Shown here piece by piece: positions 11,279 through 48,680 of a DNA stretch of 64,000 bases. Within the stretch, counting starts at the first letter, position 1; every line of letters starts with the position of its first letter. Source of the stretch: Raja brachyura (taxonomy: Eukaryota). Location of the stretch: positions 41,664,001-41,728,000 of the forward strand of contig OY740800.1 of NCBI GenBank assembly GCA_963514005.1, in the 5' to 3' direction. Under the pieces are notes generated by a model, which ran no database searches, was not told the DNA's origin, and saw only the letters and a program-made list of their open reading frames with translations. The translations under genes and the position numbers were made by a program.

Positions 11279-11380
11279 TAGGTAAACACAAACTGCTGGA
11301 GTAACTCAGCGGGCAGGCAGCATCTCTGGAGAGAAGGAATGGGTGACGTTTCGGGTCGAGACCCTTCTTCAGGCTGATGT
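11279..11380 (-). mobile_element. Penelope-derived short element
   Basis: tgctggagtaactcagcggg..gcagcatctctggagagaaggaatgggtgacgtttcgggtcgagacccttcttcag. Confidence 0.8.
11345..11372 (-). ncRNA. Minimal type-I hammerhead ribozyme core (PLE-associated)
   Basis: Minus strand CUGAAGA-A-GGGU(CUCG)ACCC-GAAA-C-GUC; palindromic ACGU stem III; stem I is only about 2 bp. Confidence 0.6.
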
Positions 11381-11399
11381 AAATGAACGATATTTTTGC

Positions 11400-13200
11400 A
11401 ATTTTTCAAAATGCATTCGATTTGGATTAATAAAATATGGTGTATGCGGAATAATCCCTGCTTTTCGGAGAATGTGTTCGTGTATTTTGTTTTAAACGTT
11501 TTAAAATAAACAGCTCAAACAAAACACAGCTATTTTTAATTAAGCTATTATGTTTACATAATAAAAATGCAAATGTTTTAAATAGACCGTTCAAAATTAA
11601 TTACTCTCTGCATTAAATATGTCATTTTTTCGATGTGGGTTCCGCAGTTTACAGAAGAATATTTTACAGCTAACCGCCGATAACATACCTCTCTTCCGAT
11701 ACCTGAAAAACCCTTAGCTCCTGAATCTAACCAAGACAATTTACAATTGTTAGCATTTCTTTTCCAACCGTTTCGGAATTTTCCATACGTTAAAGCTGGC
11801 GATGACGACATACAAACCTTAAAAATAATAAATATGTTGTTTCAAAAGCTAATGTTTTACACACGCAATTATTAGACTTGATTAAATCGAAATAACGGAA
11901 TCATTTTCAGTGACCTAAACGGTTTCCAGCACGTTAAACAAGTTCCTTTCAAACAATAAATCAACAAACGCACTTTTGAAGAGACTGGGGGGGTGGGACG
12001 ATAAAACAGCTCAAGGCAATAATTCAGCAAAGAAATTAGCTCCGGTCCGCTCTCTGGCAATACTCAGCTTTGTTCCATTTATTTCTCTCTCCGAAATACT
12101 TCTGTTCGCCCCATCGCTAGCGACAATCATCACGTTTTTCTTTAAATCACACATAGACTCGAACACTGAAGGGAGCTCCGCCGAGAGCCCAACAAAACGC
12201 GCTGACTGGACCGAGACAAGATGCGAGGAGCTCCTGGCCTGTCTCACACAGGAACAGCTAGTTATACGTTATGTGCAATGAGAGCTCACATTTTGTTCAA
12301 TATCTGCCTTGTTTTGCAAAGTAAAATTAAGGCAGGCAGCAAAATACGCATAAGGTAGATACAAGGAACTGCAGATGGTTCTATCAACACAGAATACCTC
12401 GGTTTCGTTAGCTCGATGCAAGGTTAGTTCCACAGCCCTCCTCGCCCTTTTCAACTTACTTCCAAGACACACCGTTGCCTTCTTTCAATCTATTCAATTT
12501 TCCGAGCACATCGTCGCCGTTTCCTGCCTTTTGCTCATAGCTCATAGGATCGTGGTTGCAAAAGGTGAGTTGTCTTCAGCCAATCGCCAACCGTGTTATC
12601 CCTGAGGTTCACACCTGGCCCCTTGGTTATCTCTGACTCTATCAAATGAACCAAGCAAGGAATGCAGACGGTAAGGAGTTATTGATCCGACCAGGTAGCT
12701 GTCCATAACTGCATCATTCCCCGTGAATTGGAACGAGAACCTTTCATCAAGGGGGCAACCAATGTCCAATTCCCATCTGCAACTTGGTCGCTGCGGCTCA
12801 ATTTTTTTTGTCAATTGCGCTTGCAACTAATTCACTCCTCCCACAGCATTGCTCCCAATTCACATTGATGTTATAGTTCCATTATCATATACATTGGTTT
12901 CAATGTCAAATTGTACGTTATTACTGATTCTCCACAAAATCATATCCAGTCCGCATCTTAAATACACTGATGGATTGAATATTCCGCTTCACAATATCTC
13001 GTGGGAAAAGATAACCGACTATTTCACAAAGATCTCAACGGGTAAACATGAGGACAGACCACCAATCAACGAATAACGAATTGGTTTAAGTGTGTTTTGG
13101 GGACATTGTGGAACCAATGTATGTGCAAAGACGATATTTTGAAAAGGGCTGACAAAAATATTGCAATATGTAGTATCTTTAACAAAAAAAAATAGAACTG
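11400..13200. promoter_or_regulatory. CpG-retaining, repeat-poor block (candidate unmethylated regulatory island)
   Basis: Visibly frequent CG dinucleotides compared with CpG-depleted flanks; no recognisable ORF; perfect donor AAG|GTGAGT at 12564/12565. Confidence 0.5.
12541..12564 (+). other. Candidate plus-strand micro-exon (24 or 17 nt) or 3' end of a first exon
   Basis: tttcctgccttttgctcatAG|CTCATAG|GATCGTGGTTGCAAAAG|GTGAGT. Confidence 0.35.
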
Positions 13201-13464
13201 CATTATTAAGAGTCAAATAATAGAATGGAATGGAATAGAATAGTCAAAGAATGTCAAACCAGACAAGAAAAGCTGAGAAACTATGGTGGGTAAAGGCAAG
13301 ATGTAAGACTAAATGAAGACAAAAAATGCTGCAGACAATTAGCAGGTCAGATATTACCTGTGAAAGATAACAGAAGTAATAGTTCAGATCAAAAACCCAA
13401 CTACTGACTGATTCTACATTTTCAGTTTTTATTTCAGATTTCCAGTATTTCAGCCCCCTCCCCC

Positions 13465-14110
13465 CAAGTCGTAGAGCTATTCAACATGAAAACAGGCACT
13501 TCAGCTCACCATACGGACCAAGTTGGCATTCTGAGCGAGTCCCCTTTGTCTGCATTTATCCCAAAGCCCTCTAAACTTTTGCTATCTATATATGATCAGC
13601 CATGATCTATATTGAATGGCGGTGCTGGCTCAAAGGGCCAAATGGCCTACTCCTGCACCTCTTTTTTCTGTTTCTATCTGTCCAAATCTCTTTTGACCTC
13701 TCTCTCTCTCGCTCTCTCTCTCCCTCCTTCTCCTCCCCCCCCCCCCCCCGGATATTTAAATTCTTCTACCTTGGGAAAAAAACTTAATGTTCACTTTATC
13801 CATGTCCCACATGATCCTGTACAGCTCAATAAGGTCGTCCTCAGCCTCCTCTGTTCCAAAGAAGAATGTCCCAGCCTAACCGGCCTATCTCGATAACTCA
13901 GGCATGCAACCCCAGGTAACATCCTGCACTCTTTACAACTTAATGACATCCTTCCCATAGCTGGGTGACCAGAAATGCACACATTTTTTTCAAGTGTGGT
14001 CTCACCAATGCTTTGTACAGCTGCATCATCACGTCTTTTGTACTCGATACCTTTCCCAAGGAGGGCAAGCAAGCCAAAAGCCTTCTTCACTACACTCACT
14101 GTCCACCTGA
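13465..14110 (-). mobile_element. CR1 3' fragments (minus) with an inserted plus-strand CR1 tail and (CT)n/poly-C tract
   Basis: ORF 13791..14099(-) VKKAFGLLALLGKGIEYKR; tail gatcagccatgatc..ggcctactcctgcacct at ~13594-13660. Confidence 0.75.
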
Positions 14111-15340
14111 CTCACCACTTTCAGGAAGACTTGACCAAGTACTGCCACTTACTGTGCAAGACTTGCTCTGGTGCATCTCCACACAATAGTCAGAGCTAAA
14201 TTCCACTCGCCATACCTTGGCCAACATCTCAACTAATAAAGACCCTGTTCTTGCGAGCCTTCCTCACTGCACAACTGGTTATTTACAGTACACGTGGGAA
14301 CCTGTTCAACCTGCTCTCTAGAACCAAGGTCAACACATCAGTCATTGTGCTGCTGTATGCAATCTCCATTTTTGCATATTTGCACATTATTGAGTAATTA
14401 ATTGAAGCATATGAGAGACAGTTCCTTACCCTACATGTCTGCAAACAAAAGGCCTCTACCAATCTCCAGTCATTGTATAACATAGCCATATAAGGATAAG
14501 ACTCTGGTAAAGGTCGACAACTTTCCATATTGGTGCTGCTATCTCACAATGAAAGCCTATGGCTGTCTGAGAAAAGTGTATTTGAAGGGAAGATCTCAAA
14601 TCTGGCAGAAGGCTCATGATCTTTGGAGCAGAAGAAATCCCTCCTCTCCGAAATGCTTCAAAAAGCGTGGAAAAAATTACAGTGTTTTAACTGAAAGTAC
14701 TGGAAAAAATACTATCAATGCAGTTGCCACAAAAACAACCAAAATCATCGGCAAGATAAGTGAACCAAAAATTATCGTCTCTCTCCCCACACCCAAGCCA
14801 ATATCCCGTGTTGAGGCCCCAGTTACATTCAGTTAACAGCATCACGTTGTTTGCACGCAGAAACACCAGGTGGTCACGTTAGACGTTCTCTGGCCAGCAT
14901 AAGATTACTGGGTGGATAAAATAAATGTAATATTCTCGATGTCTCAGAATAATCCTCGTTCCTTGGCTGCTCAAAGTGGAGACATTTAGAATGGCTTTGA
15001 AAACCTCAGCAGAAGCACGCAGTAAACAAGTGTAAATAGAAGGGGGTGTATCACCTCTCAAACCATCTGCCTACCAACAGCACCTCGGTTGGGGAAACAT
15101 TGGAGCAAGAGGCACTCGTAACATGGGTAAATAAGTATGATGGTTTTGAATTCAAACGTTTGTACAAGAACATATTTGGAATTGTGGTTGAATACAATTG
15201 CAATGCAGACATAAACGTTCAGCACCTCTCGGGTTGAACGCGATGGTTACCTGGGACTATCGGAAGCATCGAATCTGCTGCAACGGACAGTGGAATCTCT
15301 AGGAGAAATTGGCGTAGTTATCGAAATGACATTAAAAGTC

Positions 15341-15490
15341 GAAGATAGACACAAAATGCTGGAGTATCTCAGCGGGACACTTCTTCAGAAGGACCCGAAA
15401 CGTCACCCATTCCTTCTATCCAGAGATGCTGCTTGTCCCGCTGAGTTACTCCAGCATTTTGCGTATCTCTGCAGTTCCTTCCTACACATC
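15341..15490. mobile_element. Palindromic Penelope-derived element (internally deleted)
   Basis: acacaaaatgctggagtatctcagcgggac ... gtcccgctgagttactccagcattttgcgt. Confidence 0.75.
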
Positions 15491-16154
15491 CTGACATTTA
15501 AAGCCAGTGATTTCTAGCTCTCGTAGCAACTTCCTGTCATTGTGCCACACGCACTGACTTCGCCACATTGATACCTGGATACCCGACAAGAGGTTTTCGC
15601 CATGCGCTTGACAAGTCCTTCGCCTTCGTTGTAGGCTTTTTAGGATTGTTGGCGAAAGCGTGGATTTGCTGCATTATCCCAATAAGTAAATTTCAATCTC
15701 GGTTTACAAAGCTCCAAACCAGCCAATCCGAAGTAGACGTGAGTTATACACATCGAGCAAAACTGCCCACCGCAATAGTCGCAAATTCCTCCATTCTGTT
15801 TCGTTTGAATCCTAGATGAAGACATGCCACTTAATTTTTTATCAATATGTCATGCAAACCCGCATTGTACTTATGTGAAAATAGCAGTATAATTATATCC
15901 TAAGCGTATGATAACCCTCAATTATAATTATAATCAGTGCATAATGGTGAATCACGTTGAAACACAACACTATGAACATGAGCACGTTACTGTGTATTGC
16001 AAGTTCCCTGCAGGTGCACTGCCGGTGTTAAATAAAGGGACTGCACATGGATTTGGGATGTGTCGCTGTAACCCTGTCATCACACCGTTAGTTTGACGGC
16101 TCTCCATTCGTTACAGATCTTGACAGCGGTTTAATCAAACACTGCTCTTAACGA

Positions 16155-16308
16155 CCAAGACGGAACTGCAGATGCTGGTTAAACCGAAGATAGACACAAA
16201 AAGCTGGAGTAACTCAGCGGGTCAGACAGCATGTCTGAAGGTGTCCGGATGCGTCTCCAAATATGCTGTCTGACCCGTTGAGTTACTCCAGCTTTTTGTG
16301 TTTATCTA
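16155..16308. mobile_element. Palindromic Penelope-derived element
   Basis: ~45-bp inverted arms agatagacacaaaaagctggagtaactcagcgggtcagacagcat / atgctgtctgacccgttgagttactccagctttttgtgtttatct. Confidence 0.8.
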
Positions 16309-16649
16309 CTGTGCTGTTAACTCCAGGCTTATTGGAGGTTCACTGCAGACACTCCACTCAAGATTAGCTGCAGCTCCTGTGCTGACCTAATCTGATTACA
16401 AACTGCTAACACTGGCGTTATTGTAAACACTAGTGATGGCTATCGGTTTCTTAGAGATGCGTGGGAATGCTTTCAATTTATAACAAGAGATGCACTGTCG
16501 TACTCGGTCACTATACAATGACGTTGAACGTTCTGGGTCATTACAGGTACCTGTTTGCTCCCTAATTGTTTAGACTCTCTCTTGCTTGGACATGGGCTGT
16601 GTTTAAATGTCCACAGCTAAATGTTAAATGTTTTTTTTAGCAATATCCC

Positions 16650-17500
16650 GATTCCAAATATGCCCCCGTGCTTAGCATTCCTTTGCATGGCGATCTGCTA
16701 AATACAAAAAGATTTAAACATATCCCAAAAATCAATTCAGACAACCCAACAAGCATGTCCACAATTACATTTAAAGAATATGTGCCACAGAATCAGATCA
16801 TTGGACCCAGGCAGTCAATATTGGTTTTTAATCTCTATGGAAACCCCTTCTTCTCTTTCATCATAACCTTCTATTCTCTTTGCCCTCACATACTTAAATA
16901 ATCTTTCACTTATTTTCTGGTAGAGAAGACTTTTCTCAATTTCTCATTTGATTCATTAGTGACTATTTTATATTGATACCTCTTCCCTGTTAAATAACGT
17001 TATCCATGTATGTACTTTAAAATTGTAGTTGGCTTGATAACGACTTCAATTAGTTCACCCTCATGAAAAAAGAGACCCAGTATGTTCATCCTTTTCTGAA
17101 AAGTATATCTCAAAATTCTTGGTTTCAACTTTGTAAATCTTTTTTGTACCCTATCTAATGTCTTGAGATCCTTTTCCTCTAAAGTGCCAGAATTGTTCAA
17201 AGTTCAAGTATGATCCAACCGTGGTTCAGTACAGATTTAGTATAACTTTACTACTTTTCATTCTAAGCATCAGAAATACATCCAATACTCAGTTTCCCTT
17301 TTATTTTACCCCGAGCCTTGTTAAATTGTGCAACTACATTTAGTGATCGACGTTTGTACATTCCAATATACTTTTCTTCCTCTGCTCCATCTATCCTTGC
17401 AACTTCCAAGTTAGAAATGACCTTCCTATTCTTCCTATCTAAATGTACTATCTCATACTTGTCTATGCTTAACTTCATATGCTCATTATTTATCAATTCA
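16650..17500 (-). mobile_element. Old CR1-group LINE 3' fragment
   Basis: ORFs 17263..17496(-) IDKYEIVHLDRKN..EKYIG and 17000..17200(-) KDLKTLDRVQKRFTKL. Confidence 0.75.
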
Positions 17501-17957
17501 GCCCTTCATATGCCCCGTGTTGTTTCAATGTCTATACTCAGGTTCTTTACATTCTTAACATACTAGGTTAAAACATTTGCCACCTCCCTGTTTACCTTTT
17601 CTGAAGGATACTTTGCTTGCACCTTATTGTTGGAAAATATCCCCGAGAATTTTTTTTTAATAAATTTGAATAAAAACTCAAATTCAATCAAACAATATAA
17701 TCCATACAAAATCATTGAACCAATCACTTTGTATTAACAACAGGATGAAACTGAGTTTGACCAACTGTGGCATGTATTCCTTACTTTTGTAGGAACTAAA
17801 TGCAGGAATCATATACTCTTTTATTTGCCTAATAATAAATCAGTTTAAATAATTTAAAACATTTAATGATGTCAGTTTCTTTTTTGGATTAATTACGGGA
17901 GCATAATGCATAAAAGTGATTCAACCCTTGATTCAACCCAATTTTACTAATAGTCCA

Positions 17958-18182
17958 AAGATAAACACAAAATGCTGGAGTAATTCAGCGGGATAGGCAG
18001 CATCTCTGAAGAGAAGGAATGGATGATGTTTCAGGTCGAGAACCTTCAGTTTGAAGAAGGGTCTTGACCCAAAACATCACCCATTCCTTCTCGCCAGAGA
18101 TGCTGCCTGTCCCGCTGAGTTACTCCAGCATTTTGTGTCTACTTCGGTGTCTAACCAGCATTTGCAGTTCCTTCCTACACAT
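17958..18182. mobile_element. Full palindromic Penelope-derived element with two opposed decayed hammerhead motifs
   Basis: ~90-bp inverted arms centred near 18048. Confidence 0.8.
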
Positions 18183-19749
18183 TTCACTGTTAGACTACTA
18201 GCTTGTGTAAGTCTAATGTTAGACAGAGGCGCAATGGTTGTCAATCTCCACAAGAGACCAAACCACCTAAAGAAGCAAATGACACTGCAAGACCAAAATA
18301 GATAACAACAGCACACCTGAAAATGTAATTATGTCACCGTATCAAAACTGTGGATAAGACATTGGATATTTGCTAAAGTTCCTCAAGGGAATGTTTTCCA
18401 AACAAAACTTAAATAGCAAAACTCCAAAATCACTATCGAGCACAAAGTTCCAATCGTGCTGTACTTACATGTTCTCACCACCCAATGAAATGTATCAAGT
18501 TTTAAACATTTACCATTTAAATAAATCTGAGAATTCACAGGGCTTCTATAAAACATATATGTAACACACAATTTAAAAAAGTACTTAGACAAGTAAGACT
18601 CAATTGCCAATAAATATCTTACCAGCAGTTTCAAATACTTGTCTAACTGCATTTTTTCTGCAAAGAATAAAATTGGTTACAATTACGCCAATAAGAAAGG
18701 GACCTAGAACAATTCCAATATGTGGGGGTTGATATTTTTTACTTTTATCTTTGGGTTACTTTCGTTATGTTTTCCCATATTTGCAAAATTTGCCTTTTTC
18801 TGTCTTTTAAAAATGGCTTGAGATGCACCCATTCTTATGTTTATAAAGCACAACTAAATTAGAATGAGTAATAATGACAAATACATTTGTTTAAGCCCCA
18901 TCTCAGTTATTTATTTGATAAAATCTTTATTTCATAGAGTTACACACCTTTTATTTTTTGTTCCTTTCCTGCTGAAGCCATTACTTTTCAGGCCTTTTTC
19001 TACCACCTTAATGTTATTGATAACACACCCCATGATCAATGTGAGTGGTTTACACGAGCATCATAAAGCAAAATGAATGAAAATGTATGAAAGACATTTA
19101 TTGCTGACATCATGCTTTATGGCTGGAAAAAAAATCCAGGTAGCCTTTGTGGGTTTTTTTTTAACAGTTTTTTAAAGTTAAAACCAAACATTTCAAGCAC
19201 TTAATGATACAAAATTGAAGCCATATTACAAAATTGCCTTATTAAGGAAAACAAACAAAATCAATCTGAGATGGTCATTCCACATTTCACTAAAAGTTAA
19301 ATAAAATGTTCAGTTGTTTATTTTTGGCACCAAAGTACTCCATTTGAAAACCTTATTCTGTGAGTTCAATGTAATCCTTATATCCCGTGGATTAGTTAAG
19401 AGTCTCTAGACGGTGACGTAGCTATAGAAAAATGAGTGCACCTCTGCATTTCCACCACAATTATTCACCTAACTTCAGTGCTTTCAATATACCAAGCTTA
19501 GGTAGGTAATCCACTGCTGTTTATTTAAGACTATATATCTTTTCATTTAACCATTTTTTGCATTGCACCTATTTTACAGAGAGTCTTAATTATCTTGCCA
19601 TACTATGACATTCCACAATATAAAGAAAAGTATTCAAAGATTAAAATTAAAAGTGCTTTTTACAAATGCACAGAGCATTAAAACCAAGATTAAGTGTATT
19701 AGTGGCAAAAATACTGATAGATGGGTTTGATTTAATAGCCTTACAAAAT

Positions 19750-24589: not shown

Positions 24590-25000
24590 TTGACACAAAA
24601 AGATGAACTCAGCAGGCAGACAGCATCTCTGGAGAAATCCCCTGCATTCCTCCTCTTTTCATCCCTCCCCCACCCAAGTCGTACCAGCTTCAAAGGAGCC
24701 TTGTTGAGTCTCATTATTTGTAACTCGTTTTCACCTAGCCCACAGCTAATAATGGCCTGTTTCCTTTATCATTGTTACTTTTTTGCATATCTTTCATTCA
24801 TTTGTTCTATATTTCTATATCACCATATCTATCTCTTATTTCCCTTTCCCCTGACTCTCAGTCTGAAGAAGAGTCTCAACCCGAAAAGTCACCTATTCCT
24901 TATCTGCAGAGATGCTGTCTTACCCGCAGTGTTACTCCAGTTTTTTCTGTCTATATTCGGTTTAAACCAGCATCTAATGTTCCTTCCTTCAGATTACATG
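24590..25000 (+). mobile_element. Penelope 3' end with hammerhead-like motif (24863-24890) and a short inverted 5' arm
   Basis: cagtctgaagaagagtctcaacccgaaaagtcacc..gttactccag..ccagcatct. Confidence 0.75.
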
Positions 25001-31270: not shown

Positions 31271-31813
31271 TTCACTTATGTTTTATTTTCCTTATCACAT
31301 TCTGACTAATATACTATTAATTTGACAAATAATAAGATAGAAGGAAATAAATTGAAAATCTCCAGATATTGGAAATTAGAAAAAAAATCTGAAATGCTGG
31401 AAATACTTTGCAGATCAGATCGCATCTGTAGATGAAGAGGTAGAGCTATGTTTCAGTCAAAAACCCTTCAACAGAACCGGACCTGAATATTCTCAGCGAT
31501 TTCTGTTTTTATTTTAGAAGGTCGAAGGGATATGCTCTAGAAATACTGCTTGAAAATAGGTCCATGTGAAGATATGGACAATGATAGAAGACAAATTAAC
31601 TCCCAAATATCATTTTAATCTGTGAAAAGATTTGGTAATAATTGATAAAGTAATTCCTATACCTGCTGCGTTAGGGACTACCTGACTATTATCTCCTTGC
31701 AAAATGACACTGCACAGGGATAGTCAAGATTTATTCTGCCCACTGTCCAGACATGGTGCAGCTGCAATCCGGCCTAATTTCCAAAGCCAATCATAATTGC
31801 ATTATGTTGAATA

Positions 31814-31944: not shown

Positions 31945-32749
31945 ATTATGAAATGCCCTTTTGCAAGCCATTCATCAAAATATGGCATTGCGGTCTGGAT
32001 TTGAATATACTGGAACCAGGGGTTCCACAGCAAAACACCACTAATGTCCTGTTTGTGTGCCAGCTTATTTCTGACTTAAAAAAACAAAACAAATATAAAC
32101 ATTTATTCAGAAAATATAAGCAAGAAATACAAAAAGAGTGCCTGGCATTCTTTATATTCATAGTTTCATTCAGTCTATATATTCATGCAGTTATGATGTC
32201 CATATCTTTGCAGTGTCATCAAGTTAATGCATTCTATGTACAAAGCTCTAATGCTACTCATACGACCTCTTTGAAACAATGCACTCTTTAAAACTCAAGA
32301 GGATGTTACACAGGATCCGGCCCCTGAGTGGCTCGTGGTGGTGGGATCTTAGATTGCAACCCTTCCCCATAAAATCTTTACTTTGGCTGCACCAGGTTTA
32401 GGACGCCTCTGAGCATGTAGTACTGCAACCTTGAATGTGTCAGGTGGCAGCAATCCTTTGTGGACATATTGTATTTGAAGATCGACAGGTTTTGGGCAGA
32501 CTAAAGTGCATTTTTCCATGAGTTAATTATCTTTCAGCAGCACTTGATGTTTCTCTCAGTATGCGTCTCTCAGCCTGTAGACCAGTGTCCTCTATAACAG
32601 AGCTTGTTTCTGACTTCCACAACTCAACACTGAATCCAAATGCAGGCCCAAACATTGTAAGACAGGTGCCATTTTCACTTTGGTCCTTCAATCAGGCCCT
32701 TTAGCTTTACACCATAAAATAGAACAGCACAGGTGCAGGCACTGTGAAA

Positions 32750-33093
32750 CAGTGAGCACCACCGGAAATTGGAAGAGCAGCACCTCATATTCCGCTTGGG
32801 CAGTCTGCACCCCAGCGGCTTGAACATTGACTTCTCCAATTTCCGGTAGCCCTTGCTGTCTTCTCCCCTTCTTAGCTCTCACTCAGCCCTCTGGTTCTTC
32901 CTTGGTTCTTCCTTTCTTCTTCCCCACCCCCCCACCCCCCCCCCCCCCCCCCCACCCATCAGTCTGAAGAAGGGTTTTGGCCTGAAACATTGCCTATTTC
33001 CTTCGCTCCATAGATGCTGCGTCACCCGCTGAGTTTCTCCAGCACTTTTGTCTACCTTCGATTTTCCAGCATCTGCAGTTCCTTCTTGAACAC
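32750..33093 (+). mobile_element. Penelope 3' fragment (end of GIY-YIG domain, C-tract, hammerhead-like motif 32964-32991)
   Basis: Encodes RKLEEQHLIFRLGSLHPSGLNIDFSNFR; ctgaagaagggttttggcctgaaacatt. Confidence 0.85.
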
Positions 33094-34485
33094 TTTGACA
33101 CACACTGTTTGTGCCGAACATAATTACAAGTTAAACTAATCTCCACTGCCTGAATGTGAGCCATATATCTCCATTCCCTACATATTCATATGCCTGTGTA
33201 AAAGCCTCTTAAATACCACTATTATATCTGCTCCCACCTCCAGCATGTTCCAGGCATCCACTGCATTGTGTGTAAAAAAATTACTCTGCACATCTCCTTT
33301 AAATTTTACCCTCCGATCTTAAAGCTATGCTCAATTGATATTTCCCCTACTGTGAAAATAAATTCTGGATAGTTGGCTAAAATAATCCTGCCCCGTTCAT
33401 TTCAATCCAATCACTGAACTTTGAAAGTAATTTGTTTATCGTTTAAGTTTATTTTTATTTATTCTTATGCTTTGATTAATGTTTAACGTCTTAAGATATT
33501 TACATGGAAATTGTATTTTTTTTAACCTGTTCATTTCTCATTTCAATCTATTTGAATTGCTTTGAAATGTTTCTGATTGGGTATTTTTTAATCTTTAAGT
33601 GATTAAAAGAGATGATGTGGAAGACAGATACAATTGCGCCATTTAAGAGGCTATTAGATAAGCGCATGGACATGCATGGAATCACATTCAGGCAGAGGAG
33701 ATTAGTTGAACGGCATCATGTTCGGCATGGTCAATATGGGCCAAAGGGCCAGTTCCTGTGCTGCTATGTTCGATAAGAGTATTGCAAGTAACAATTCTCC
33801 CACTTCCTCTATGTTGAAATCAAGACTGCCACAAAGTCTCTGATGCTGGAATCATTCCTTACAACGATCCACAGACCATGGAATTTCTATCTTTGCAATT
33901 TAAATTTTAAAGTTTTTATAATCTGAAGCTTGGTATCATTACCACCAGATAAATTATAGGTTTTATTTTAATTCTTCGATTTTTGAGGGTACTGTAAATC
34001 AGGAACTTTGTCTCTTCATTTTGGATTCACAATTTTAAAAAAAATATGCCTGCCTTACGTCTGCCTGAAGATATTTTGAAGAGTCTATTTTGAAGATGGC
34101 AACAACATACACCAGTAAGTGTTTAATAACCACAGAACTAACTCCCTTTGTAACCTCACTGCGATAAAAATGGTGACCCACATAGTCTTCCAAGATTATG
34201 TGGCTAACCACTAAAGAGATTAACCGAGGTATACAGTTCACTGTTCAGAATTTTATCACTCATCAGCAACATGCTGTAAAAGTGTATGTGCTGTGAAAGT
34301 GAATTGTGTGACTTAATCAATGGATTTAAAGAATTTTTAAAATCTCACAGTTTCCCTTGTTATCTCTGGCCTTTGTCCAACCATCTGTAAAATCAAAACC
34401 CCCATCATCTGTATCCATCGATCACTTGCCAGGTTTTGTCCCGCCCCAACCCCGTTTCAGCTTCCCCGCCTCTACTATAATCAGT

Positions 34486-34513
34486 CTGAAGAAGGGTCCT
34501 GACCCGAAACGTT
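34486..34513 (+). ncRNA. Minimal hammerhead ribozyme core
   Basis: CUGAAGA-A-GGGU(CCUG)ACCC-GAAA-C-GUU. Confidence 0.55.
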
Positions 34514-34526
34514 GCCTATCCATATT

Positions 34527-35170
34527 AGAGTCATAGTCATGAGAGTCATACAGCATGGAAACAGGTCCTTCGCCCCAATTTGCCCACACTGGCCAGCATG
34601 TCCCAGCTTCACTAGTCCCACCTGCCCGCATTTGGCCCATATCCATCCTAACATGTCCTATCCATGTACTTGTCGAAGTGTTTCTTAAATGTTGGGATTG
34701 TTCCTGACTCAACTACCTCCTCTGGCAGCTCGTTCCATATACCCACCACCCTCTGTGAGAAAATATTACCCCTCAAATTCCTATTAAATCTTTTCCCCTT
34801 CACCTTAAACCCATGACTCTGACCCTCGATTCCCCTACTCTGGGCAAGAGACTGTGCATCTACTCGATCTATTCCTCTCATGATTTTATACACCTCCATA
34901 AGATCACTCCTCATCCTCCTGCGCTCCAAGGAATTGCGTCCCAGCCTACTCAACCTCTCAGACCATCAAGTCCTGGCAACATCCTCGTAAATCTTCTCTG
35001 TACCCTTTCCAGCTTGACAACATCTTTTCCATAACATAGTGCCCATAACTGAACACAATACTCTAAATGCGGCCTCACCAATGTCTTATTTAACTGCAAC
35101 ATGACCTACCAACTTCTATACTCAATACTCCGAATGAAGAAGGCCAATGTGCAAAAAGCTTTTTTGACCA
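34527..35170 (-). mobile_element. Relatively young CR1 3' fragment
   Basis: ORF 34648..34953(-) SLERRRMRSDLMEVYKIMRGIDRV..FSQRVVGIWNELP. Confidence 0.9.
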
Positions 35171-38100
35171 GTGATGCTGCCCGACCTGATGAATTACTCC
35201 AGCACTTTGTGTCTTTCAATATTATTGAGACCTGACTTCCTTCACAAGAATAGCGGCCATTATTAAATTCCGTGAATTTCAAATTTGAATTCTAACCAAC
35301 ACTGAGCTCTAGTCTCTTTCAAAATGATTTCTTTCTACAACAGATTCTGCAATTATTGACCAATTACTGTCAAATAATACATTTCACCATACAAATTACA
35401 TTTAAAGCAGGAGCACAATCATTTATGACTAACTGAATTATTAATAGCTAACGGAATCAGGGGATATGGGGAAAAAGCAGTAACGGGGTACTGATTTTGG
35501 ATGATCAGCCATGATCATATTAAATGGCAGTGCTAGCTGGAAGGGCCTACTCCTGCACCTATTTTCTATGTCTCAATGATTCCTGCTACACGAGACAGAG
35601 AATTTAAAAACGGTTCTCAACTCTACCGATTCACACAATATTGAGTCTCATGTATTTTACCTCCAGGCTGGTTATGAATAGAGGAATCTTGCCACTAGCT
35701 GATGGTTATTACAGTTCCAACCCACTCTTTCTCCAGTGGACTTCAAATTGGACTAAATTATCTGTTCAGCATGCTGGAAAATGCCACCATTGTGTGGATA
35801 GCAAACTTTCATTTATCTGGTATTCGTGCATCAGAATTCTTGTGCAACCAACAAAAAGTTATTGTTACGAAAATAAGATTGAAAAGTAAATTTTCTAAAG
35901 TGTTAAAATACTTTTTTAGTTTATTTACATGTAGACAAAAGGGCAGTGCAGTCAGTGGTTGAAGACCAGCAACATCCTCTTTGAAGATCTGTCATTTCAA
36001 GTGATAAGTACATTCAACCGTTTTATTTAATTTTGCTGTATTTTACATTAATAGCATTTAGTTCTAAAATATAAAGTTGCAGTCTAAAATATTATTTAAA
36101 AGGGGTGAGAAGATGGCCAGTAATTTATATAACAGTTTTGGGAATGAATACTAGTGTGTGATGGTTGTTAATATTATTTGAGCAATTCTCATGCAAGTGG
36201 CAATTCTATTCCACTGAGAATACAGGGCATTTCAGAAATACTAAATGTTTATTTTCACTTGTTCAACAATTATCTTTTAAGATGGAGATTATGACATTGA
36301 ATGCCATGCTATACATAATATGTGCTTCTCGTAAATAGAGGAAAACACTGGATCGATGGCAGTCATAAAACTATTCCTATCTTTTATAATTTTAGTGAAA
36401 GTAAGATTCCTAAATAATTTAGAGGGAGAGGAAGATGGAGAGGGAGAGACCCACAGAAAGTATGAAACCCCTGTGCAGCAATACATTTTCATATCCATTT
36501 CTTGCAACGTTGGTCACTTTTGCTAATCATTAATTATATATAGTAAAACAATCTCATTAGTTATTCATTGCTTTGTCTTAATTACAGCTCAGGTGTTTCA
36601 CCTCTGCTTCATTAGGTCTACATCCAGGATCCTATCAATAGTGCACTTTACAGTATAATATCTAAATGTTTCATTTGACCTCAATTAGCATAACTAACAT
36701 ATCACGTTTTATTCTCAATTTCTACATTCTGCTGTCACCTCTGAGCTGGGCATTATCTGTTCGAAAAGCTTCAACTTCCCTCTCATTGTTTCTGTAATCA
36801 TCTTACATAATTGCATGACATCATTGGCATCTGCTGCATTGCACTGAATTTGCCATATGTGATGCCACATATATGTGAATTTCACCAGCAGAGCACATAA
36901 CACACAGGAAAGTCTACTGGGGTACAGAAACAATAATTCCTAAATCCAGATAAGAAACACGCAGAATACGAAAGCTCAAACAAAATGAAACAAAGGGATC
37001 AGCAAAATATCTTGCAGAATATAACTATCTTCTGTCAACAGTAGTTTTATTATACACCAAGAAAGCAATGTTAACTGTTGTCCCACATGAAGATCTAGAT
37101 ATTTGACCCACCATTAATATGCTTACAGTAGAATCTATCAAAATGATAAAAAAATACCTCATAAATATTATGATACACATAAATATTACTAAAAGATATT
37201 GAGTATTTTTACAGATGTTTGTAAACAGCCATTTACTCAGGCTGGCTGTGATTGAATTACAGGGAATATGATTTCAGGGCATGTCGAGTTGATAATTAAT
37301 TGAAGATAGGTTATGGTTGTTGTCAATAAATAGCAAAGTGATCCTGAATGTATAATAAACTAACAATGATTTGTGGAATTACAGGTTTGTTGTGAATTAC
37401 AGAACATGTCAAGATTACCTGGCAGTAAATAAAAATGTTCATAAATGTGAAATGACAATTCCAAATTTTAGTAGCATTCTTAAGCTGAGAATAATCCAAA
37501 CCTTCACTGAATTTATTGATTCAGCCGTTGGCTGAAAAAGATAGGCTCAAATACTGCATTTTATAAAATACACCTTTGAAATTTGTAACTTCCAGAACAG
37601 TACATAATTGCTCCAACCTAGTATTTATGAATTAACTTGTTTCTTCAGGGAGAAGATATCGATAATCAGGAAATCATTGCATTTAAGGATTTATGTGATA
37701 TCATAAATAGTAAAGGTAGTTTGTATGTATTTCAACATGAGGTTCACTCTTGCAATCGCTACAATGATAGATGAAGGCTTGTGTTCATCTGTATGTGATA
37801 ATAAGTTATGTTATTGACTCATTCGTATGCAATGATATGTACAATAATGGATTAATGATTGAGCAAATTAGTTAGAAAAAAAAATAAAAAAATGACTAGC
37901 ATTTTTCTGCCCTTGTACTCCATTGGTTACCTTGCCTTTTTCTGTAAAAAGAAAAGCGCATAGAGTGTGCTATGAACTTCACTATTACTCATTCATTACC
38001 TGCCATTGAAGACTGAAATTAATTATGTAGTATCTGAAAATTTCCTTTAGCTCAAACAAACAGCTGATTATTTGTGATACTACCTATAATATCTCAGCCA

Positions 38101-38303
38101 AATCCTGAAAATGCAAGCAAAGCATTGAAGTTATATTGGGCCTCTAAAATCATCTGGTTAGAAACTGCAGGTCTCAATATTTTTTTCCCTGATGCATTAT
38201 GTGGGAATTCATTTTTTCAAGATTCTGGAATTCTTCAATTATGTGTAAATCTAGCTTGCTTAAAACATTTTAACCTTGGGTTGAACAATATATCTCAATT
38301 TAA

Positions 38304-39158
38304 GGTAGACAAAAATGCTGGAGAAACTCAGCGGGTGAGGCAGCATCTATGGAGCGAAGGAAATAGACAACGTTTCGGGTCGAAACCCTTCTTCAGACTG
38401 ATGTGGGGGGGGGGGGGGGGCGGGAATAAGAAAGGAAGAGGTGGAGCCAGTGGGCTGAGGGAGAGGAGGCGAGATAGAGACTACTTGAAATTAGAGAAGT
38501 CAATGTTCATACCGCTGGGGTGCAAACTGCCCAAGCGAAATATGAGGTGCTGCTCCCCCAATTTACGGTGGTCCTCACTCTGGCCATGGAGGAGGCCCAG
38601 GACAGAGAGGTCGCATTCGGAATGGGAGGGGGAGATGAAGTGCTGAGCCACTGGGAGATCAGGTTGGTTATTGCGAACCGAGCGGAGGTGTTCGGCGAAG
38701 CGATCGCCAAGCTTACGCTTGGTCTCACTGATGTAGAGCATCTAGAGCAGTGGATGCAATAGATGAGGTTAGAGGAGGTGCAGGTGAACCTCTGCCTGGA
38801 ACAACTGCTTGGGTCCTTGAATGGAGTCAAGGGGAGGGGAGGTAAAGCGACAAGTGTAGCATTTCCTGCGGTTGCAAGGGAAAATGCCCAGCGAGGGGGT
38901 GGTACCGATGGGAAGGGACAAATTAACCAGGGAGTTACGGAGGGAGCGGCCTCTGCGGAAAGCAGACAGGGGAGGAGATGGGAAGATGTGGCAAGTGGTA
39001 GGATCACATTGGAGGTTGCGAAAATGTCGGAGGATTATTTGTTGTTTGTGATGGCTGGTAGGGTGAAAGGTGAGGGCAAGGGGGACTGCCCTTGTTACGA
39101 GTGGGGGTTGGGGATTGAGACAAGAGTCCATTCAAGGACCCAAGCAGACCCAACCACA
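38304..39158 (-). mobile_element. 5'-truncated Penelope-like (Neptune-type) retroelement with 14-bp TSD
   Basis: Frameshifted ORFs: VPLALTFHP..PCNRRKCYTC (Cys linker), NLIYCIHCSRC and YISETKRKLGDRFAEHL (GIY-YIG); TSD atatctcaatttaa at 38290-38303 and 39159-39172. Confidence 0.92.
38369..38396 (-). ncRNA. Minimal hammerhead ribozyme core in the Penelope 3' terminal region
   Basis: CUGAAGA-A-GGGU(UUCG)ACCC-GAAA-C-GUU. Confidence 0.6.
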
Positions 39159-42394: not shown

Positions 42395-43255
42395 ACCAAG
42401 CTCGTCCCCAAACTTGTGGAACTTCGACTCCCTTCTGCAACTGGATCCTTGATTTCTCAGCCCCCTACAATTCGCCTTGTACCTTCATGACTGTGCAGAT
42501 AAATACCACTCCAACTGAATTTACAAGTTCGCAGATGACACTACTGTATATCAAATAAAGACGAGATAGAGTAGAGGAAGGAGATCGAGAACCTTGCAAC
42601 CTGGTGCCAAGATAACAACCTCTCCATCAATGCCAGCAAGACATAGGAGATTGTAATTTATTTCAGGAAGTGAAATAGTACACATTCCAAACAATACATT
42701 GATGCCGCCAAACTAGAGATGGTCAAAAGCGTCCAAAAGTTCTTAGGATTAAATAATACCAGCAATTTGTTCTGGACCAGCCACGTCAAAACCGTGGCTA
42801 AGAAAACACACCAATACCTCTACTTCCTCAGGTGACTTAGGAAGTTCGGCATGTCCCCAACATCCGTCACCAACTTGAACAGATGCAGCGTAAAAAGCAT
42901 CCTGCCAGGATGCATCACAGCATGGTTTGGGAATAGCTCCATCCATGACAAGAAATTGCAGAGATTGCACCTATTCCTTTTCTCCAGAGATGCTGTCTGA
43001 CCCGCTGAGTTACTCCAGCTTTTTGTGACTATCTCACTTCCATTGTCCATCATCACTTCAAGCGGCCTTGGCAAGGCCACCAGCATAATCAAGGACCTTT
43101 CTCACCCTGGTCACTCCCTCTTCTCCTCTCTCCCATTAGGCAAGAGGTACAGACATTTGAAAATGCATACCACCAGATTCAGGGACAGTTTCTTCTCAGC
43201 TTTTATTAGGCAACTGAACTATCCTCTCATCAACGAGAGTGTGGTCCTGACCTCC
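42395..43255 (+). mobile_element. Rex1/Babar non-LTR retrotransposon fragment with a Penelope-derived piece inserted at ~42968-43034
   Basis: Degenerate CNWILDF, KFADDTT, WCQDNNLSIN..KT, LYFLR.LRKFG and GCITAWFG motifs. Confidence 0.85.
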
Positions 43256-44439
43256 CAAAAGAGATTTGGATATTTATATTGATATAAAATGTGGCTTCTT
43301 AATGCTAAAGATGATTTTTTTTTTAAAAAGGAAAGCCAGTGCTATCTTATCTGAATGAATGGGGAGTAGGATTCTGACAGGCATCTAAAGTGTGCCTGAA
43401 ATACAGATCAAATATGATTTCTGAAATGAATGATTACAGAGATTATAAAAAACAGACAAAATTAAACATTACAATCTACACCAGTAAACTGACATGGCAA
43501 AGTTAATAAAGGAACAGAATAATAAAGGCCAACCACCCTGGATTCTTGTGGTATGAATCTTTTGCAGATGCTGTTGGTTGTAGCATCACATCTAGAGACT
43601 GCAACATAATTACCACAACAATCAGGGGCCCACTCTTTCTTTCCCTTTCTGCTGTTGCATATCAAACATTGATTGGATTGTGATGGCACATCTGCAAACA
43701 AACATGCAGGCGGTTAACCATGCAAGTTACACAACAAACTCTTTAAAAACTAACATCACCATTCGTAGATTAACCCTGCCATATTCACTTAGATGTTAAG
43801 GCAATAAGCGAATTCGGTATTCCAACTGCGCATGCCCAGGTCATAAGTCACTGACGGGACACCGGCCCGGAGCAGTGGCGGCCCAGGTTTACAGCCAGCG
43901 CGGAGAAGAATCAATTTAAAAGGCAATAATCTCTGATATAAGAGAGGCTGCACTTACCTCCTCTGCCCACTCACTAAACCCTCACTCCTTCAACTGTACA
44001 CAACCCACATTGATTCACAGACCGAGCCAGAAGCCCCATTTATTCCTAGTCTCACTCAGAGTCATCCCACCATTCAAAACTCCAGATTTGCTGAAGCAAT
44101 ATTGTTGTTGCCTGGATGATCAGTAGGAGAGATTATCCACTGTTACAAACGGCAGGAGATTGTGAACTCCACTGGAGTTCAGAACCATGGCATGGAAATG
44201 GCATTTTGGTGCTCGATGGTTGCCCCTGTTGAGCCAGCCAGTCTGTGACCCATAACACCATTACGTAATGGCAGGTATGGCCACAATTGTCAATTGACAC
44301 ATCGGGCAATGCTCACCATTTATATAGATAATAAAGAACGGAGGCAATAGACCATAGGTGCAGGAGTTGGCCATTCGGCCCTTCGAGCCAGCACCGCCAT
44401 TCAATGTGATCATAGCTGATCATCCACAATCAAGAAGCA

Positions 44440-44900
44440 AAAAAATGAGTCCTGTGAGCTGCTTTTATAGATGGGCCCAGTGGATGACATCGTCGGGAGC
44501 TCGCAGGTCACAGGTTGGTGACCTGTTTTTCCGAAGCTCCTGCAGCAACAGCTTCGTCCGCTGGACTGGAGGGCGGTAGCTTCGACCACCCCGGGCTGCA
44601 TTTGAACCGGAGTTTGAACTGGCACGTTCGCGGAGCACAGATTCAGCTGCGGGACCTACCATCACCCGGCGGGGTCACAACATCGGAGGCCTGGATCGCC
44701 TCGGCGCAGAGGAACAACAAGGAGGGAAGAGACAGAGACTTTAAGACTTTTGCCTCCATCACAGTGAGGTGCCTAGTGAACTCACTGTGGTGGATGTTAA
44801 AATTGTGTTTATTGTGTGTTTTTGTTATTTCTTATTATATGTATGATTGCAAAAATTTCGTTCAGACCGAAAGATCTGAATGACAATAAAGGATAATACA
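44440..44900 (+). mobile_element. GC/CpG-rich SINE-like element with Rex1-type 3' end
   Basis: Abrupt GC-rich block ending in a hairpin (ttcagac..tctgaa) plus tgacaataaa, similar to the Rex1-type tail at ~25150. Confidence 0.5.
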
Positions 44901-45184
44901 ATGTTGACAGTGAACTAAGGTAGTCCGTATCAAATAATTAGTAATTTCTACAATATAATTGTTATAAAAAAAATAGGTGACATTTAACAGCAAATGTTAT
45001 GCTCTTTACTAGTTCTAATTCACGTTTCCTTTTTGAAACTTATAAAGTAAATCTAGTCAAAATTCAACAGGAGGAGAGTGCTATTAAATCATAACAGGTT
45101 TGTTTAGTCAATTTTCATTCTTCATATGACAATATATAGGTATAAAAATTCCACTTAAGTTAGACAATTAAAATCCTAACTGTG

Positions 45185-45265
45185 GTTGCTGTCAGTACGG
45201 AGTCTATGTGGTCTCCTCGTGACCTGCATGGGTTTTCTCTGGTTTCCACCCACACTCCAAAGTTT
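45185..45265 (+). mobile_element. V-SINE (HE1-like) core fragment
   Basis: ggagtctatgtggtctcctcgtgacctgcatgggttttctctggtttccacccacactccaaag. Confidence 0.65.
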
Positions 45266-46299
45266 GCACTAATTTTTATTTTGTAAGATATTATAATTTA
45301 AGCTTTAAAATTACATACAAGATATAAAGTCATCATTTCCTTTTGGGAAACCATAGTCTGGATTTTCATTTACACTTTTAAAAATGCAGTGCATCCAAAT
45401 ACATCATACTCTGACAATCAATAATTCACTACCAATCCTTTCACAACAAAGGCATAGCTCCTCGGAATATAATTTTCATTGGGAGGCAAGACAAAACCAA
45501 CATCTTAGAGACTTGTTTCCACTAATGGACAACCATTTAACCAGTAAAAGACAGCCACTGGTATAGATTGAAATAAATAATTTGATTTAAAGGGTCATTT
45601 GTGCATTATTGTATGATATGATGCAAAATTAGTCACAGTTGTACTTGGTCACGAAAGTAAAAAGGAGGAAAGAGCAGGCAGAGTGCCTTTGTGCTTGTTG
45701 GGTTGAAAAACCTGCATTTGTCAGACCACAAAGTAATGTAACTGTTTAGATACTTTCACAACCATTTCAAAAATGATATTTACATTATATTGTGAAGTGT
45801 GGGTTCAAATTTCACCATTTTGAGACTTTCTAGGGTGGACGTCATTGTATTTTTAATTTACAAGTAATTCAAAAATTCATATCACAATCGTAACCTCTTA
45901 GTTTCTAGCAGGAAAGCCGTATTTTGCAAAGTTTCCCATTTTTTTCTTTCCTGTGTTACACCATTAGTTATCCTGAATTTATCCAGTTCTGTTTGCTTTT
46001 GCATACAAAGTGCTTTAATATATGTAGTTTCAGCTTTATAGCAGACTCATACCCTCTTGCTTTATTCGAGTATAAAACCATGAAATATGCAACGGCATTA
46101 GTTATGTCCAGTCAAACTGCACCCAGTTTAGGTTTCTAAAACAGTTCGATCTGCAAAATGCAGAATCATTGAGTATGGTGGGAACTGTTGTGGAAAAGTA
46201 TGTAACCCTCAATTGAAATCCGCCCAGACAGTTGGGATACAGATATCTCCTTCAAGTGGTGAAAAGATGGCAAACAAATAGGTACAAGTATCTCAGTTA

Positions 46300-47170
46300 G
46301 GTTCCTCGTGTTAGAAGGAGTGGCTGGAAAAGCTGGGACCCTTCCCTTAGCACTATAGGAGGCTAGGGCATGACTTTATTGAAGTATACAAAATTATGAG
46401 GCGCATGGATAAAGTGAACACCAGCAGTCCTTTTTCCCCAGGGTAGAGAGTACTGAAACTGGAAGGCGTAGACACAAGGTGAGATGGGAAAGATTTAAGA
46501 GGGCCCTCAGGGGCAACATTTGCACTCTGAGGGTAGACTACATCTGGAACGAACTGCCAGAGAAAGTGAAAGAAGTGGACACAATTGTCACAGTGCACCT
46601 ACATTCTCATCCGAGTCACTCATGTATGTGACAACAACAATGATCCCTGTGGTGCAACACCAGTTACAGAATTCCAGTCAGAAAGTCATATGGTTAGAAG
46701 TGATAGGAGCAGAATTCGGCCCATCAAATATACTCCTCCATTCAATCATGGCAGATCTATCTCTCCCTCCTAACCCCATTCTCATGCCTTCTCCCCATAA
46801 CCCTTGACACCCGTACTAATCAAGAATCTATCTATCTCTGCCTTAAAAATATCCATTTACGGCCTCTACAGCCTTCTGTGCCAAAGAATTCCACAGATTC
46901 ACCACCCTCTGACTAAAGACATTCCTCCTTATCTCCTTCCTAAAGAGCGTCCTTTAATTCTGAGGCTATGACTTCTGGTCCTAGACTCTCCCACTGGTGG
47001 AAACATCCTCTCCACATCCCCTCTAGCCAAACATTTGGTAAGTTTCAATGAGGCCCCCCCCCCTCATCCTTCTAATCACCAGCGAGTACAGGCCCAGTGC
47101 CATCAAACGCTCATCATGTTAACCCACTCATTCCTGGGATCATTCTTGTAAACCTCATCTAGACTCTCTC
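46300..47170. mobile_element. Two CR1 3' fragments (plus ~46300-46570, minus ~46690-47170)
   Basis: gaagtatacaaaattatgag (EVYKIM); gaattccacagattcaccaccctctg (QRVVNLWNS on minus). Confidence 0.8.
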
Positions 47171-47954
47171 CATACAGTTCAAAGCTTCTTTACTGTCACT
47201 TATGCACTGCACAGTGAAATTATTTTTCCATAGGTTACAAATGCACAATTAGCCAATTGCCAATTCACCAAAAAAAAGTAAATTAATTTCATTATGTCAC
47301 ACACATACTAATCAAACTGAATTGGGAATACAAAAACTTGTGAGTGGCAAAAACTATTGTGGTTTTATATTCATGAAAAATGCTGAACATAATTCTCAAG
47401 ATATGGTAAAGCAGAAATAATAAACAAATTCTACAAATCCACTCAACAATGATAAGTGGTGGAGACATAGAAAGGCTTGCGCCTAAAAACTTGACTGCAA
47501 TCAGTGATCAGAAAAAAAAAAAATTGCTTTTGTGAAGTTTATCCTCTGAAAAGGTATTTAAAATGAGTCTAACAGGAAAGAAAATTGTATACCAGGAAAC
47601 ACGTTATACAAGAAGCAAACAAATGTGACTGTACATCATATATTTTCCAGTGAGAGGTCAATGTTGTAGTATTTCAAACTGGTATAAAGGCATTTGTCCC
47701 ACTGTGACTTTATGAATGTTCACAAACCATCAAAACTATTAGAAAGAGCTGACAAAATAGATGCAGCGCGACAAATAACTGTCTTTGAAACTAAATGAAT
47801 AGTGTAGTTGTTCTATAATAGGCAGAACGTAAGGGGAAGAGCATAACACAGAGAGAATCTTATTGTTCAAGACAAATTGCAAGGAAATTACAGGGGGTAA
47901 TTTGTGCATTGTAATTGCTTAGATTGAGTTTTATAAAACCATTCTTTATGGTTG

Positions 47955-48137
47955 CGGCAGGTTCGTTGGTATCATTTAAAAATAAATTGGATAGGCATAT
48001 GGATGAGAAGGGTATGGAGGGTTATGGTATGAGTGCAGGCAGGTGGGACTAAGGGAAAAAAGTTGTTCGGCACGGATTTGAAGGGCCGAGATGGCCTGTT
48101 TCCGTGCTGTAATTGTTATATGGTTGTTATATGGTTA
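47955..48137 (+). mobile_element. CR1 3' tail ending in (TTATATGG)-type repeats
   Basis: aagggccgagatggcctgtttccgtgctgtaattgttatatggttgttatatggtta. Confidence 0.75.
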
Positions 48138-48444
48138 TTCTTCAGATAATTTAGTTTATTGTCGCAAAAAGAGGACTTCATATTATACCTTTCAGCACCT
48201 CTAGAAATACTTAAATACTGATAACAATTTAAATATTTTTGAAGTGCATTCACTTGCTGAAATTGAAGAAACCCAGAAGTCAATTTGCATATTGGATGCT
48301 TCCATCAACAATATCATATCACCAGATAATCTTTTGTAATATTAGGTATTAATATAATCTTTTCTCACTAATTAAGAAGTCCCTAATATGCATAGTCAAT
48401 AGCTTTACTAGCTAGGATTAAGAGTTATCCAATTGCCTAATAGA

Positions 48445-48680
48445 CTGAAGCTAGACACAAAAGGCAGTAAGTCAGAGAGTCAGGCAGCATCTCTGGAGAG
48501 AAGGAATGGGTGACATTTTGGGTCGAGACCCTTCTTCAGACTCTCAGTCAGAGAAGAGGAAAACCAGAGATTATGGAAGGGTAAGATGTGAAAAGGACAG
48601 ATCAAAGTAGACATTGGTCAAGGTAATATAGAATGGTTTGTTGTTGGCTTGAAGATAATGTGACAATAAGGCATACAAAC
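48445..48680 (-). mobile_element. Penelope 3' fragment with CpG-decayed hammerhead motif (48512-48539)
   Basis: gacattttgggtcgagacccttcttcag. Confidence 0.7.

Follow-up and report, generated by a model that had tools for sequence, protein, structure and literature searches.

We analysed a 64,000-nucleotide stretch of the Raja brachyura genome (contig OY740800.1, positions 41,664,001 to 41,728,000 of the forward strand; hereafter the window), in which short motifs resembling hammerhead ribozymes recur. These motifs are probably minimal hammerhead outlines within the pseudo-long terminal repeat (pLTR) of a very abundant Neptune-type Penelope-like element (PLE), and most of the short copies, or stubs, would be run-off cDNAs of the front of an uncut, likely capped RNA. 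Most short copies begin just before the motif and not at the predicted cut; their template was thus likely the front of the RNA in uncut form. In the numbering used here, +1 is C3, +28 is H17 and +29 is the first base past the predicted cut.

Copy ends were read in a sample of 1,064,000 bases in 101 stretches, made up of the window, 200 kb next to it and twenty 40-kb blocks from other contigs, picked regardless of the motif. Of the 404 copies with an anchored 3' part, 172 end internally and 232 extend to the core. The core-reaching copies divide into 59 that extend into the pLTR, 84 that hit an inverted arm and 89 that hit unique sequence. When unpaired copies are considered (n = 238), 86 of the 151 core-reaching ones stop within about 6 nt before the core, where 8% would be expected from a rate of 1.0% per base inside the motif (P 1e-53). 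In the junction class, the letters of the element fade outward from the core (T in 71 of 89 at -1, C in 42 at -4) and reach background by -7. DNA contigs of three runs, two of them from a related organism, diverge from the window copy mainly at C3 (1,029-1,074 contigs), and no loose contig end at the cut was seen among the best 24 of 1,243 rows. On the other side, young copies end near +90 or +130. About 40% of copies lie in head-to-head pairs; the sampled pairs comprise 83 head-to-head vs 4 tail-to-tail, and the longer arm reaches the core start in 59 of the 83. At L012-L014, one insertion joins an inverted arm and two copies that begin in the start zone, the first of which extends about 230 nt into the frame; we interpret this as repeated run-off and template jumping in one event.

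The shared boundary suggests where the RNA begins. YCAGTCT fits the initiator (Inr) consensus YYANWYY at 7/7 positions with the A at -3 as +1 of the RNA, so transcription would start at the A of YCAGT (TCA(+1)GT), 3 nt before C3, and the hammerhead would therefore form the first 31 nt of the RNA. In a young copy, counted from this presumed start, the consensus of the motif ten element (MTE) is matched at 9/12 positions at exactly +18. Of 110 offsets this one fits best (chance 0.003, uncorrected for the several boxes tried). The downstream promoter element (DPE) has a set position relative to +1, and its consensus is matched at 4/5 positions at +28 (chance 0.17), again with A+1 presumed. The D. 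virilis Penelope likewise has an internal promoter with Inr and DPE in its pLTR. As for a cap, starts with GAGT number 4,206 against 4,716 for AAGT and TAGT together, the latter with 71 A and 29 T among 100 listed; G at -4 is about threefold over T, though T is the commoner base. Three of the 24 GAGT loci read (L022, L157, L162) have a clean target duplication followed by GAGT, with the G unexplained by the target, and in the related organism a single G separates the arms in three listed rows whose inverted joints reach -3. In the available text of PMC11702581, an extra G marks the junctions of capped full-length L1 copies.

We propose that the element's enzyme would nick DNA and begin copying inside the tail. 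If the 5' repeat copy were used, the reverse transcriptase (RT) would reach the end of the RNA and run off after 95-135 nt, in some cases with an extra G copied from the cap. The inverted arm would come from a second run-off of this kind on the opposite strand, and the long copies from a start in the downstream repeat. The ribozyme would normally be folded off and cut rarely, with protein help or as a dimer, and this rare cutting could leave a faint +29 trace in the youngest subfamily. The Poseidon element of the anole Anolis carolinensis, in the available portions of PMC11167929, is similar in having a hammerhead near the transcript 5' end, in the cutting and extension of both strands, and in an internal RT start that gives two tail end points (compare +90 and +130). 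There, copying in vitro starts inside the tail, unprocessed RNA is the main template, cleavage needed protein and no RNA reads were found at the cut. The two differ in that the start codon lies inside the hammerhead in anole Poseidon and 164 nt downstream here, in the Neptune-type CX4CX2C linker seen here, and in the pile-up of copy starts before the core, which those portions do not report.

Motif copies and the parent element

Within the window, exact matches to a 27-nt pattern lie at 11346-11372(-), 34486-34512(+) and 38370-38396(-), and copies with two or three mismatches at 6863(+), 18051(+), 24863(+), 32964(+) and 48513-48539(-). As 100 shuffles gave no match at up to three mismatches, the eight places listed in the original prediction are real; its list of the family was too short, since a profile search returns 18 matches in the window, including inverted pairs and motif-less stubs. 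In the sample, 148 copies at up to three mismatches amount to one per 7.2 kb, in agreement with the predicted density of roughly one per 8 kb, and the profile search finds 424 family members, which extrapolates to about 1 million genome-wide. The genome-wide motif count over 2.70 Gb gave 68,021 exact copies, about one per 40 kb (reversed control, 0), and a further 10,347 with G at 11.4, that is, with a stem II wobble U.G.

The core boxes CUGANGA and GAAA and the NUH triplet are exact in 3/8 window copies, with loops CUCG, CCUG and UUCG and triplets GUC, GUU and GUU, respectively. These three copies had been called intact, which holds for the pattern. In the copy at 11345, however, stem I position 2.1 is C facing A1.1, leaving one pair; stem I of the copy at 38369 consists solely of U.G and G.U pairs. 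The stem II loop does vary as predicted, but differences between subfamilies and CpG decay account for much of this variation. Of the 404 sampled copies, 33 retain a 4-bp stem II and the complete set of core bases. For counts per position, 29 of the 232 core-reaching copies (gaps or more than 6 mismatches) were dropped, leaving 203, which favours conservation at all motif positions. In these, the extra base 9a, between 9 and 10.1, is A in 189/203, and the 10.1-11.1 pair is G-C in 131/203 and G-T, by CpG decay, in 39/203. The palindromic ACGU (15.1-16.1) occurs in most copies. Stem I allows two pairs (U-A or U.G, and G-C), with an A.C mismatch at the third position in 125/203. An extra A after A9 is also associated with the hammerhead of chrysanthemum chlorotic mottle viroid (CChMVd).

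Two loci (L186, L187) contain tandem units of 4,043 and 3,930 bp, in which a frame with RT and GIY-YIG is followed by the 3' untranslated region (UTR), YCAGT (CCAGT), the motif, a tail of about 100 nt and a start codon at +164. The L187 frame encodes RT and then a C-terminal GIY-YIG with CCHH; Pfam matches on the parent frame (RVT_1, E 4e-4; GIY-YIG, E 9e-4) are both under the curated cut-off. Twenty related loci have the same GIY-YIG frame, with the motif behind it in most, and in the window the motif trails the frame end by about 90-120 nt at 38297-39128(-) and 32748-33097(+). Every subfamily traced connects to a coding parent, and partial tandems, inverted 5' copies and an optional tail are all found in the family. 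These parent units bear out the prediction of a minimal type I hammerhead outline on Penelope-like termini and their short derivatives. The linker CX4CX2C is present in L187 and in L092-L110; a CX2-5CxxC linker between RT and endonuclease is a Neptune/Nematis mark in the available text of PMC8557442, and by this linker motif we place the parent as a putative Neptune-type PLE. The endonuclease-bearing (EN+) Neptune PLEs described there share the order of RT and C-terminal GIY-YIG, the linker, partial tandems, the inverted 5'-truncated copy and an optional 30-40 bp tail; we found no structural difference from that description, the clade being assigned by motif alone. One survey found Neptune and Poseidon to be the sole PLE groups in vertebrates. 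In L187, between +160 and +170, the start codon (+164) lies within a splice-donor-like AAG/GTATG, whose use as a donor would strip the start codon.

The motif would file under, and would presumably work like, the minimal hammerhead ribozymes (min-HHRs) of metazoan PLE pLTRs. As described in the available portions of PMC4209133, these share the CUGANGA and GAAA boxes, the base between 9 and 10.1, G10.1-C11.1, a palindromic 15.2-16.2, mostly single dispersed motifs and low predicted monomer activity, so that the ACGU palindrome, as originally proposed, and the extra base after A9 are features of the class. They are reported there in fish Neptune, Poseidon and Xena elements. Stem II has 4 bp here vs 7-8 bp in Schistosoma and stem I 1-2 bp vs 4-5 bp; the D. 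virilis Penelope has a 2-bp helix I. Unlike the set in those portions, the copies here have little sequence heterogeneity, and their number (68,021 exact plus 10,347 wobble) stands against about 4,000 in coelacanth and about 9,000 in Xenopus, counts made with another descriptor and not directly comparable. Copy ends, mapped here, are not mapped in those portions. The motif (its kind described in 2014, extra base included), the host class and a high vertebrate copy number were known already. In a search that left subscription papers, Repbase and Dfam outside, we found no prior paper on a cartilaginous-fish motif, although the supplements of PMC4209133 may list such motifs, and no paper on cap-marked Penelope stubs.

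Short tandem arrays occur at L188:1275-1897 (311-bp units, 3 motifs) and L189:1324-1652 (328-bp units, 2 motifs). Their units consist of 3' UTR, motif, tail and frame start, and are retrozyme-like and natural candidates for dimer cleavage. In the available text of Li et al. 2026 (bioRxiv 10.64898/2026.07.22.740005), non-LTR retrozymes are likewise non-coding pLTR-derived pieces with type I hammerheads, and are present in the single cartilaginous fish sampled. They are tandem arrays with at least 2 complete motifs, whereas none of the 18 window matches is of this kind, and L188 and L189 are the only, rare, loci where such arrays were found elsewhere.

Decay, folding and possible cutting of the motif

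Constraint on the motif is seen between subfamilies only. Subfamilies differ at sites that a hammerhead tolerates (loop II, the stem II top pair from U-A to U.G, C17 to U, A1.1 to G), and +32 to +46 differ freely. Spacing is constant in 37 of 38 descriptor matches in the sample, with one extra base in the other, and no min-HHR family with another stem II length is found among these 38. After insertion, by contrast, G12 is kept in 152/203 ungapped copies vs 156/203 for the loop CpG G (P 0.73), and non-CpG core conservation is 93.3% vs 92.6% at the free N7 and 9a. No two-sided stem II change, such as C-G, was seen in 100 listed variants, the change from U-A to U.G (10,347 copies) being one-sided. 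A scan against Rfam gave 12 matches with E values up to 5, none of them to a hammerhead family, and none of five folded window stretches beats its shuffles (z -0.75 to 0.96). Because the catalytic G12 decays like any CpG, no two-sided covariation was seen and the fold is unpredicted, inserted copies are relics: they decay without selection, like ordinary ones, and individual copies look inert. The original prediction of a dispersed family of working ribozymes is not supported: for inserted copies, one of the results named beforehand as refuting it is borne out, since core conservation is no higher than at comparison sites.

With ViennaRNA, stem I has a predicted probability of at most 0.23 and a rival helix is preferred. 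In monomers the GA-rich motif start pairs with a downstream CCUUC, and dimers adopt other pairings. At 11345-11372(-) the fold is not favoured (stem II pair probability at most 0.14), and stem II of the decayed motif at 32964-32991 contains U.G. The helix between the GA-rich start and CCUUC (about +36 to +41) is predicted in three subfamilies, at 11325-11372(-), at 38350-38396(-) and in L187; it would block the hammerhead, and is weaker in the CCAUG subfamily.

In the older subfamily the whole motif has repeatedly been lost between two GTC triplets (at -2..+1 and +26..+28), and deletions between both ACCC copies recur as well. We also considered a core-deleted variant (848 copies) as a hammerhead-dead mobile subfamily and rejected it, because 25/25 loci read share both flanks. 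This is a head-to-head stub with part of its core deleted that lies within another mobile element (over 1 kb), with which it was amplified (L263-L287; 848 exact matches).

Evidence for cutting at the predicted site is sparse. Among the 404 sampled copies, 8 start in the cut window, where 8.1 are expected. C17 is retained in 46,201 copies of the youngest subfamily and changed in 4,095; among 100 listed of the latter, 94 have T and 6 have A or G, and of 30 such loci read, 23 have the entire core and 2 begin within one base of the cut. Selecting copies of this subfamily without AA at +22/+23 gave 1,311 genome-wide, and a hand tally of 100 listed rows at +24 to +34 gave 9, 5, 5, 8, 6, 21, 6, 11, 9, 16 and 4 starts. 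Once tandem arrays were collapsed and 2 C17U look-alikes dropped, +29 has 15 and the other ten positions a mean of 7.6 (P 0.011). This excess was not replicated in the older subfamily, where 100 listed rows, dominated by internal deletions, hold 4 starts at +29 and 4 at +28. The excess is thus confined to the youngest subfamily and weak, being about 2-fold and, roughly scaled, some 0.4% of copies; by these sequence ends, cutting is possible but faint (about 0.4%) compared with the roughly 40% of ends at the presumed RNA start, in agreement with the anole element. In one pair, one arm ends at -3 and the other starts at +29. Two arrays, L250 (G000:C1:74835000-74835900) and L253 (C1:117724200-117725000), consist of four 63-nt units each that restart at +29, run to the first tail site and are rejoined via an extra G. 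They could reflect repeated copying of cut RNA, a small circle or later tandem duplication.

Family copies and other features of the window

Table 1. Copies of the PLE family in the window and the evidence for each.
Feature	Position	Strand	Evidence and details
Head-to-head pair	6835..6977	+	Inverted arm ~6835-6861(-); forward stub, decayed motif 6863-6890, tail
Old GIY-YIG end fragment of parent, no motif found	8961..9282	-	tblastn 49-53% identity, E 7e-14
Decayed head-to-head stub pair, not in the original list	10755..10954		Profile matches 10861-10783(-), 10862-10954(+)
Short stub, starting a few bases before the core	11280..11380	-	Motif 11345-11372; 2.1 mutated to C, first stem I pair lost
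Hammerhead outline CUGAAGA-A-GGGU-CUCG-ACCC-GAAA-C-GUC	11345..11372	-	Exact match; predicted cut between 11345 and 11344
Head-to-head pair, part of motif internally deleted	15333..15490		Profile match
Head-to-head pair, arms starting ~+41, without motif	16157..16312		Profile match
Head-to-head pair	17955..18186		Inverted arm 17955-18047(-) ends at +6; forward decayed motif 18051-18078, full tail
Inverted arm, parent 3' UTR, decayed motif 24863-24890, tail	24590..24998	+	74% identity to the full unit's 3' UTR + motif
Strongly decayed stub	31392..31474	-	Profile match, E 3.5e-5
GIY-YIG frame end, 3' UTR, decayed motif 32964-32991, tail	32748..33097	+	tblastn 81% over 32 aa; blastn 86%
Older-subfamily pLTR, exact motif 34486-34513, loop CCUG, triplet GUU	34360..34526	+	Pattern + profile match
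Stub from ~+38, without motif	35162..35214	+	Profile match
5'-truncated Penelope-like copy, frameshifted linker + GIY-YIG remnant 38487-39128	38297..39128	-	tblastn 66% over 219 aa, E 6e-79
Stub starting at +28/+29, the predicted cut site	42968..43034	+	Single case, within chance
3' UTR remnant, decayed motif 48512-48539, tail	48449..48571	-	Pattern + profile match
GIY-YIG end + 3' UTR halting at the motif's first bases, then inverted arm	55537..56019	+	Profile match

The older-subfamily pLTR is cut on its 3' side at about +41 by another repeat, and its 5' limit is approximate. The 5'-truncated copy also retains the 3' UTR, an exact motif at 38369-38396 (loop UUCG, triplet GUU) and the tail, and has 10,409 candidate relatives in the genome.

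An open stretch of 384 aa at 3316-4467(-) matches zf-RVT weakly (E 0.058) and is likely the C-terminal part of an L1/Tx1-type retrotransposon. An inverted cluster of CR1-like RT fragments spans 59789-61648 (RVT_1, E 9e-18 at 61160-61486), with 120-nt arms that are 96% complementary at 61333-61584; a sub-threshold Rfam mir-95 match stems from this hairpin. Local tandem arrays, whose repeat periods are 22, about 50 and about 165 bp, lie at 59518-59650, 61678-61891 and 62144-62592. Some motifs had been thought to lie inside an apparently transcribed locus, which finds no backing here: none of 138 unique open stretches of the window has a host-gene domain above the Pfam cut-off, the sole match above it being a retrotransposon RT.

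Alternative explanations and implications

Several observations weigh against copying from an uncut, capped RNA front. The start zone is about 6 nt wide, and some members of the junction class may belong to rare pLTR types. The cap signal is modest because A at -4 is likewise enriched over T (71 vs 29 among the 100 listed) and 21/24 GAGT loci are ambiguous, owing to target homology, filler or an inverted arm. The evidence on start site, cap and cleavage comes entirely from junctions in DNA, and in the young subfamily +33 (14) nearly equals +29 (15) among the 100 listed rows. Genome-wide counts may be inflated by copies riding inside other repeats. Finally, YCAG with its upstream pyrimidine tract resembles a splice acceptor, as in Drosophila Penelope. 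The same family could owe its shared 5' boundary to a splice acceptor (YCAG/T), or to RT stall or release at a folded, protein-bound motif. A pyrimidine tract and CAG do precede the motif in extended copies, and the available text of PMC4209133 places the end of a D. virilis intron at the 5' side of helix I; the start site in D. virilis lies 46 bp upstream of that intron. We nevertheless consider this unlikely: target duplications directly abut (G)AGT in clean cases, no common upstream exon was found among the 89 junction copies, a stall would be expected at the 3' side of the structure and not its 5' side, and the extra G fits a cap.

It is quite unlikely that the conserved 31 nt work mainly as DNA, as an internal Pol II promoter with initiator, MTE-like and DPE-like boxes, the ribozyme look being vestigial or a second use. 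The MTE and DPE matches at +18 and +28, the constant spacing, the lack of two-sided stem II change in 100 listed variants and the internal Inr and DPE promoter of D. virilis Penelope would all suit such a promoter. However, the hammerhead's own CGAAA makes up part of the MTE match, subfamily changes sit where a hammerhead tolerates them, there is a faint excess at the cut, and related motifs cleave in vitro in the available portions of PMC4209133 and PMC11167929. That the dispersed copies are instead independent active small ribozyme elements, retrozyme- or SINE-like, cutting host transcripts is highly improbable. Although the 33 copies with intact core and stem II and the 311- and 328-bp tandems, which could form dimers, can be cited for it, every subfamily traced joins a coding parent, most copies are single or head-to-head (and head-to-head arms would pair together), selection after insertion is absent and the fold unpredicted; moreover, 8/9 Xenopus retrozyme dimers failed to cleave.

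The copying of an uncut RNA front, which we favour, could be taken a step further, to a reading that we hold rather doubtful. The first 31 nt might serve twice, as an Inr-MTE-DPE promoter in DNA and as a normally silenced hammerhead in RNA, with the roughly 1 million stubs being run-off cDNAs like 'strong-stop' products. Were this so, a hammerhead cut would remove the cap and the promoter copy, each stub would carry its own promoter and copying start, and stub ends would be a record of where the RNA starts (about 40% of copies) and of rare in vivo cutting (about 0.4%).

The role of the hammerhead in PLEs is still an open question in the field, according to the available text of PMC8557442. With about a million copies, the copy ends act as a record of the RNA that was copied. 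They suggest that the template was mostly uncut, indicate the base at which the RNA would start, and offer a simple origin for both the stubs and the mirror-image pairs.

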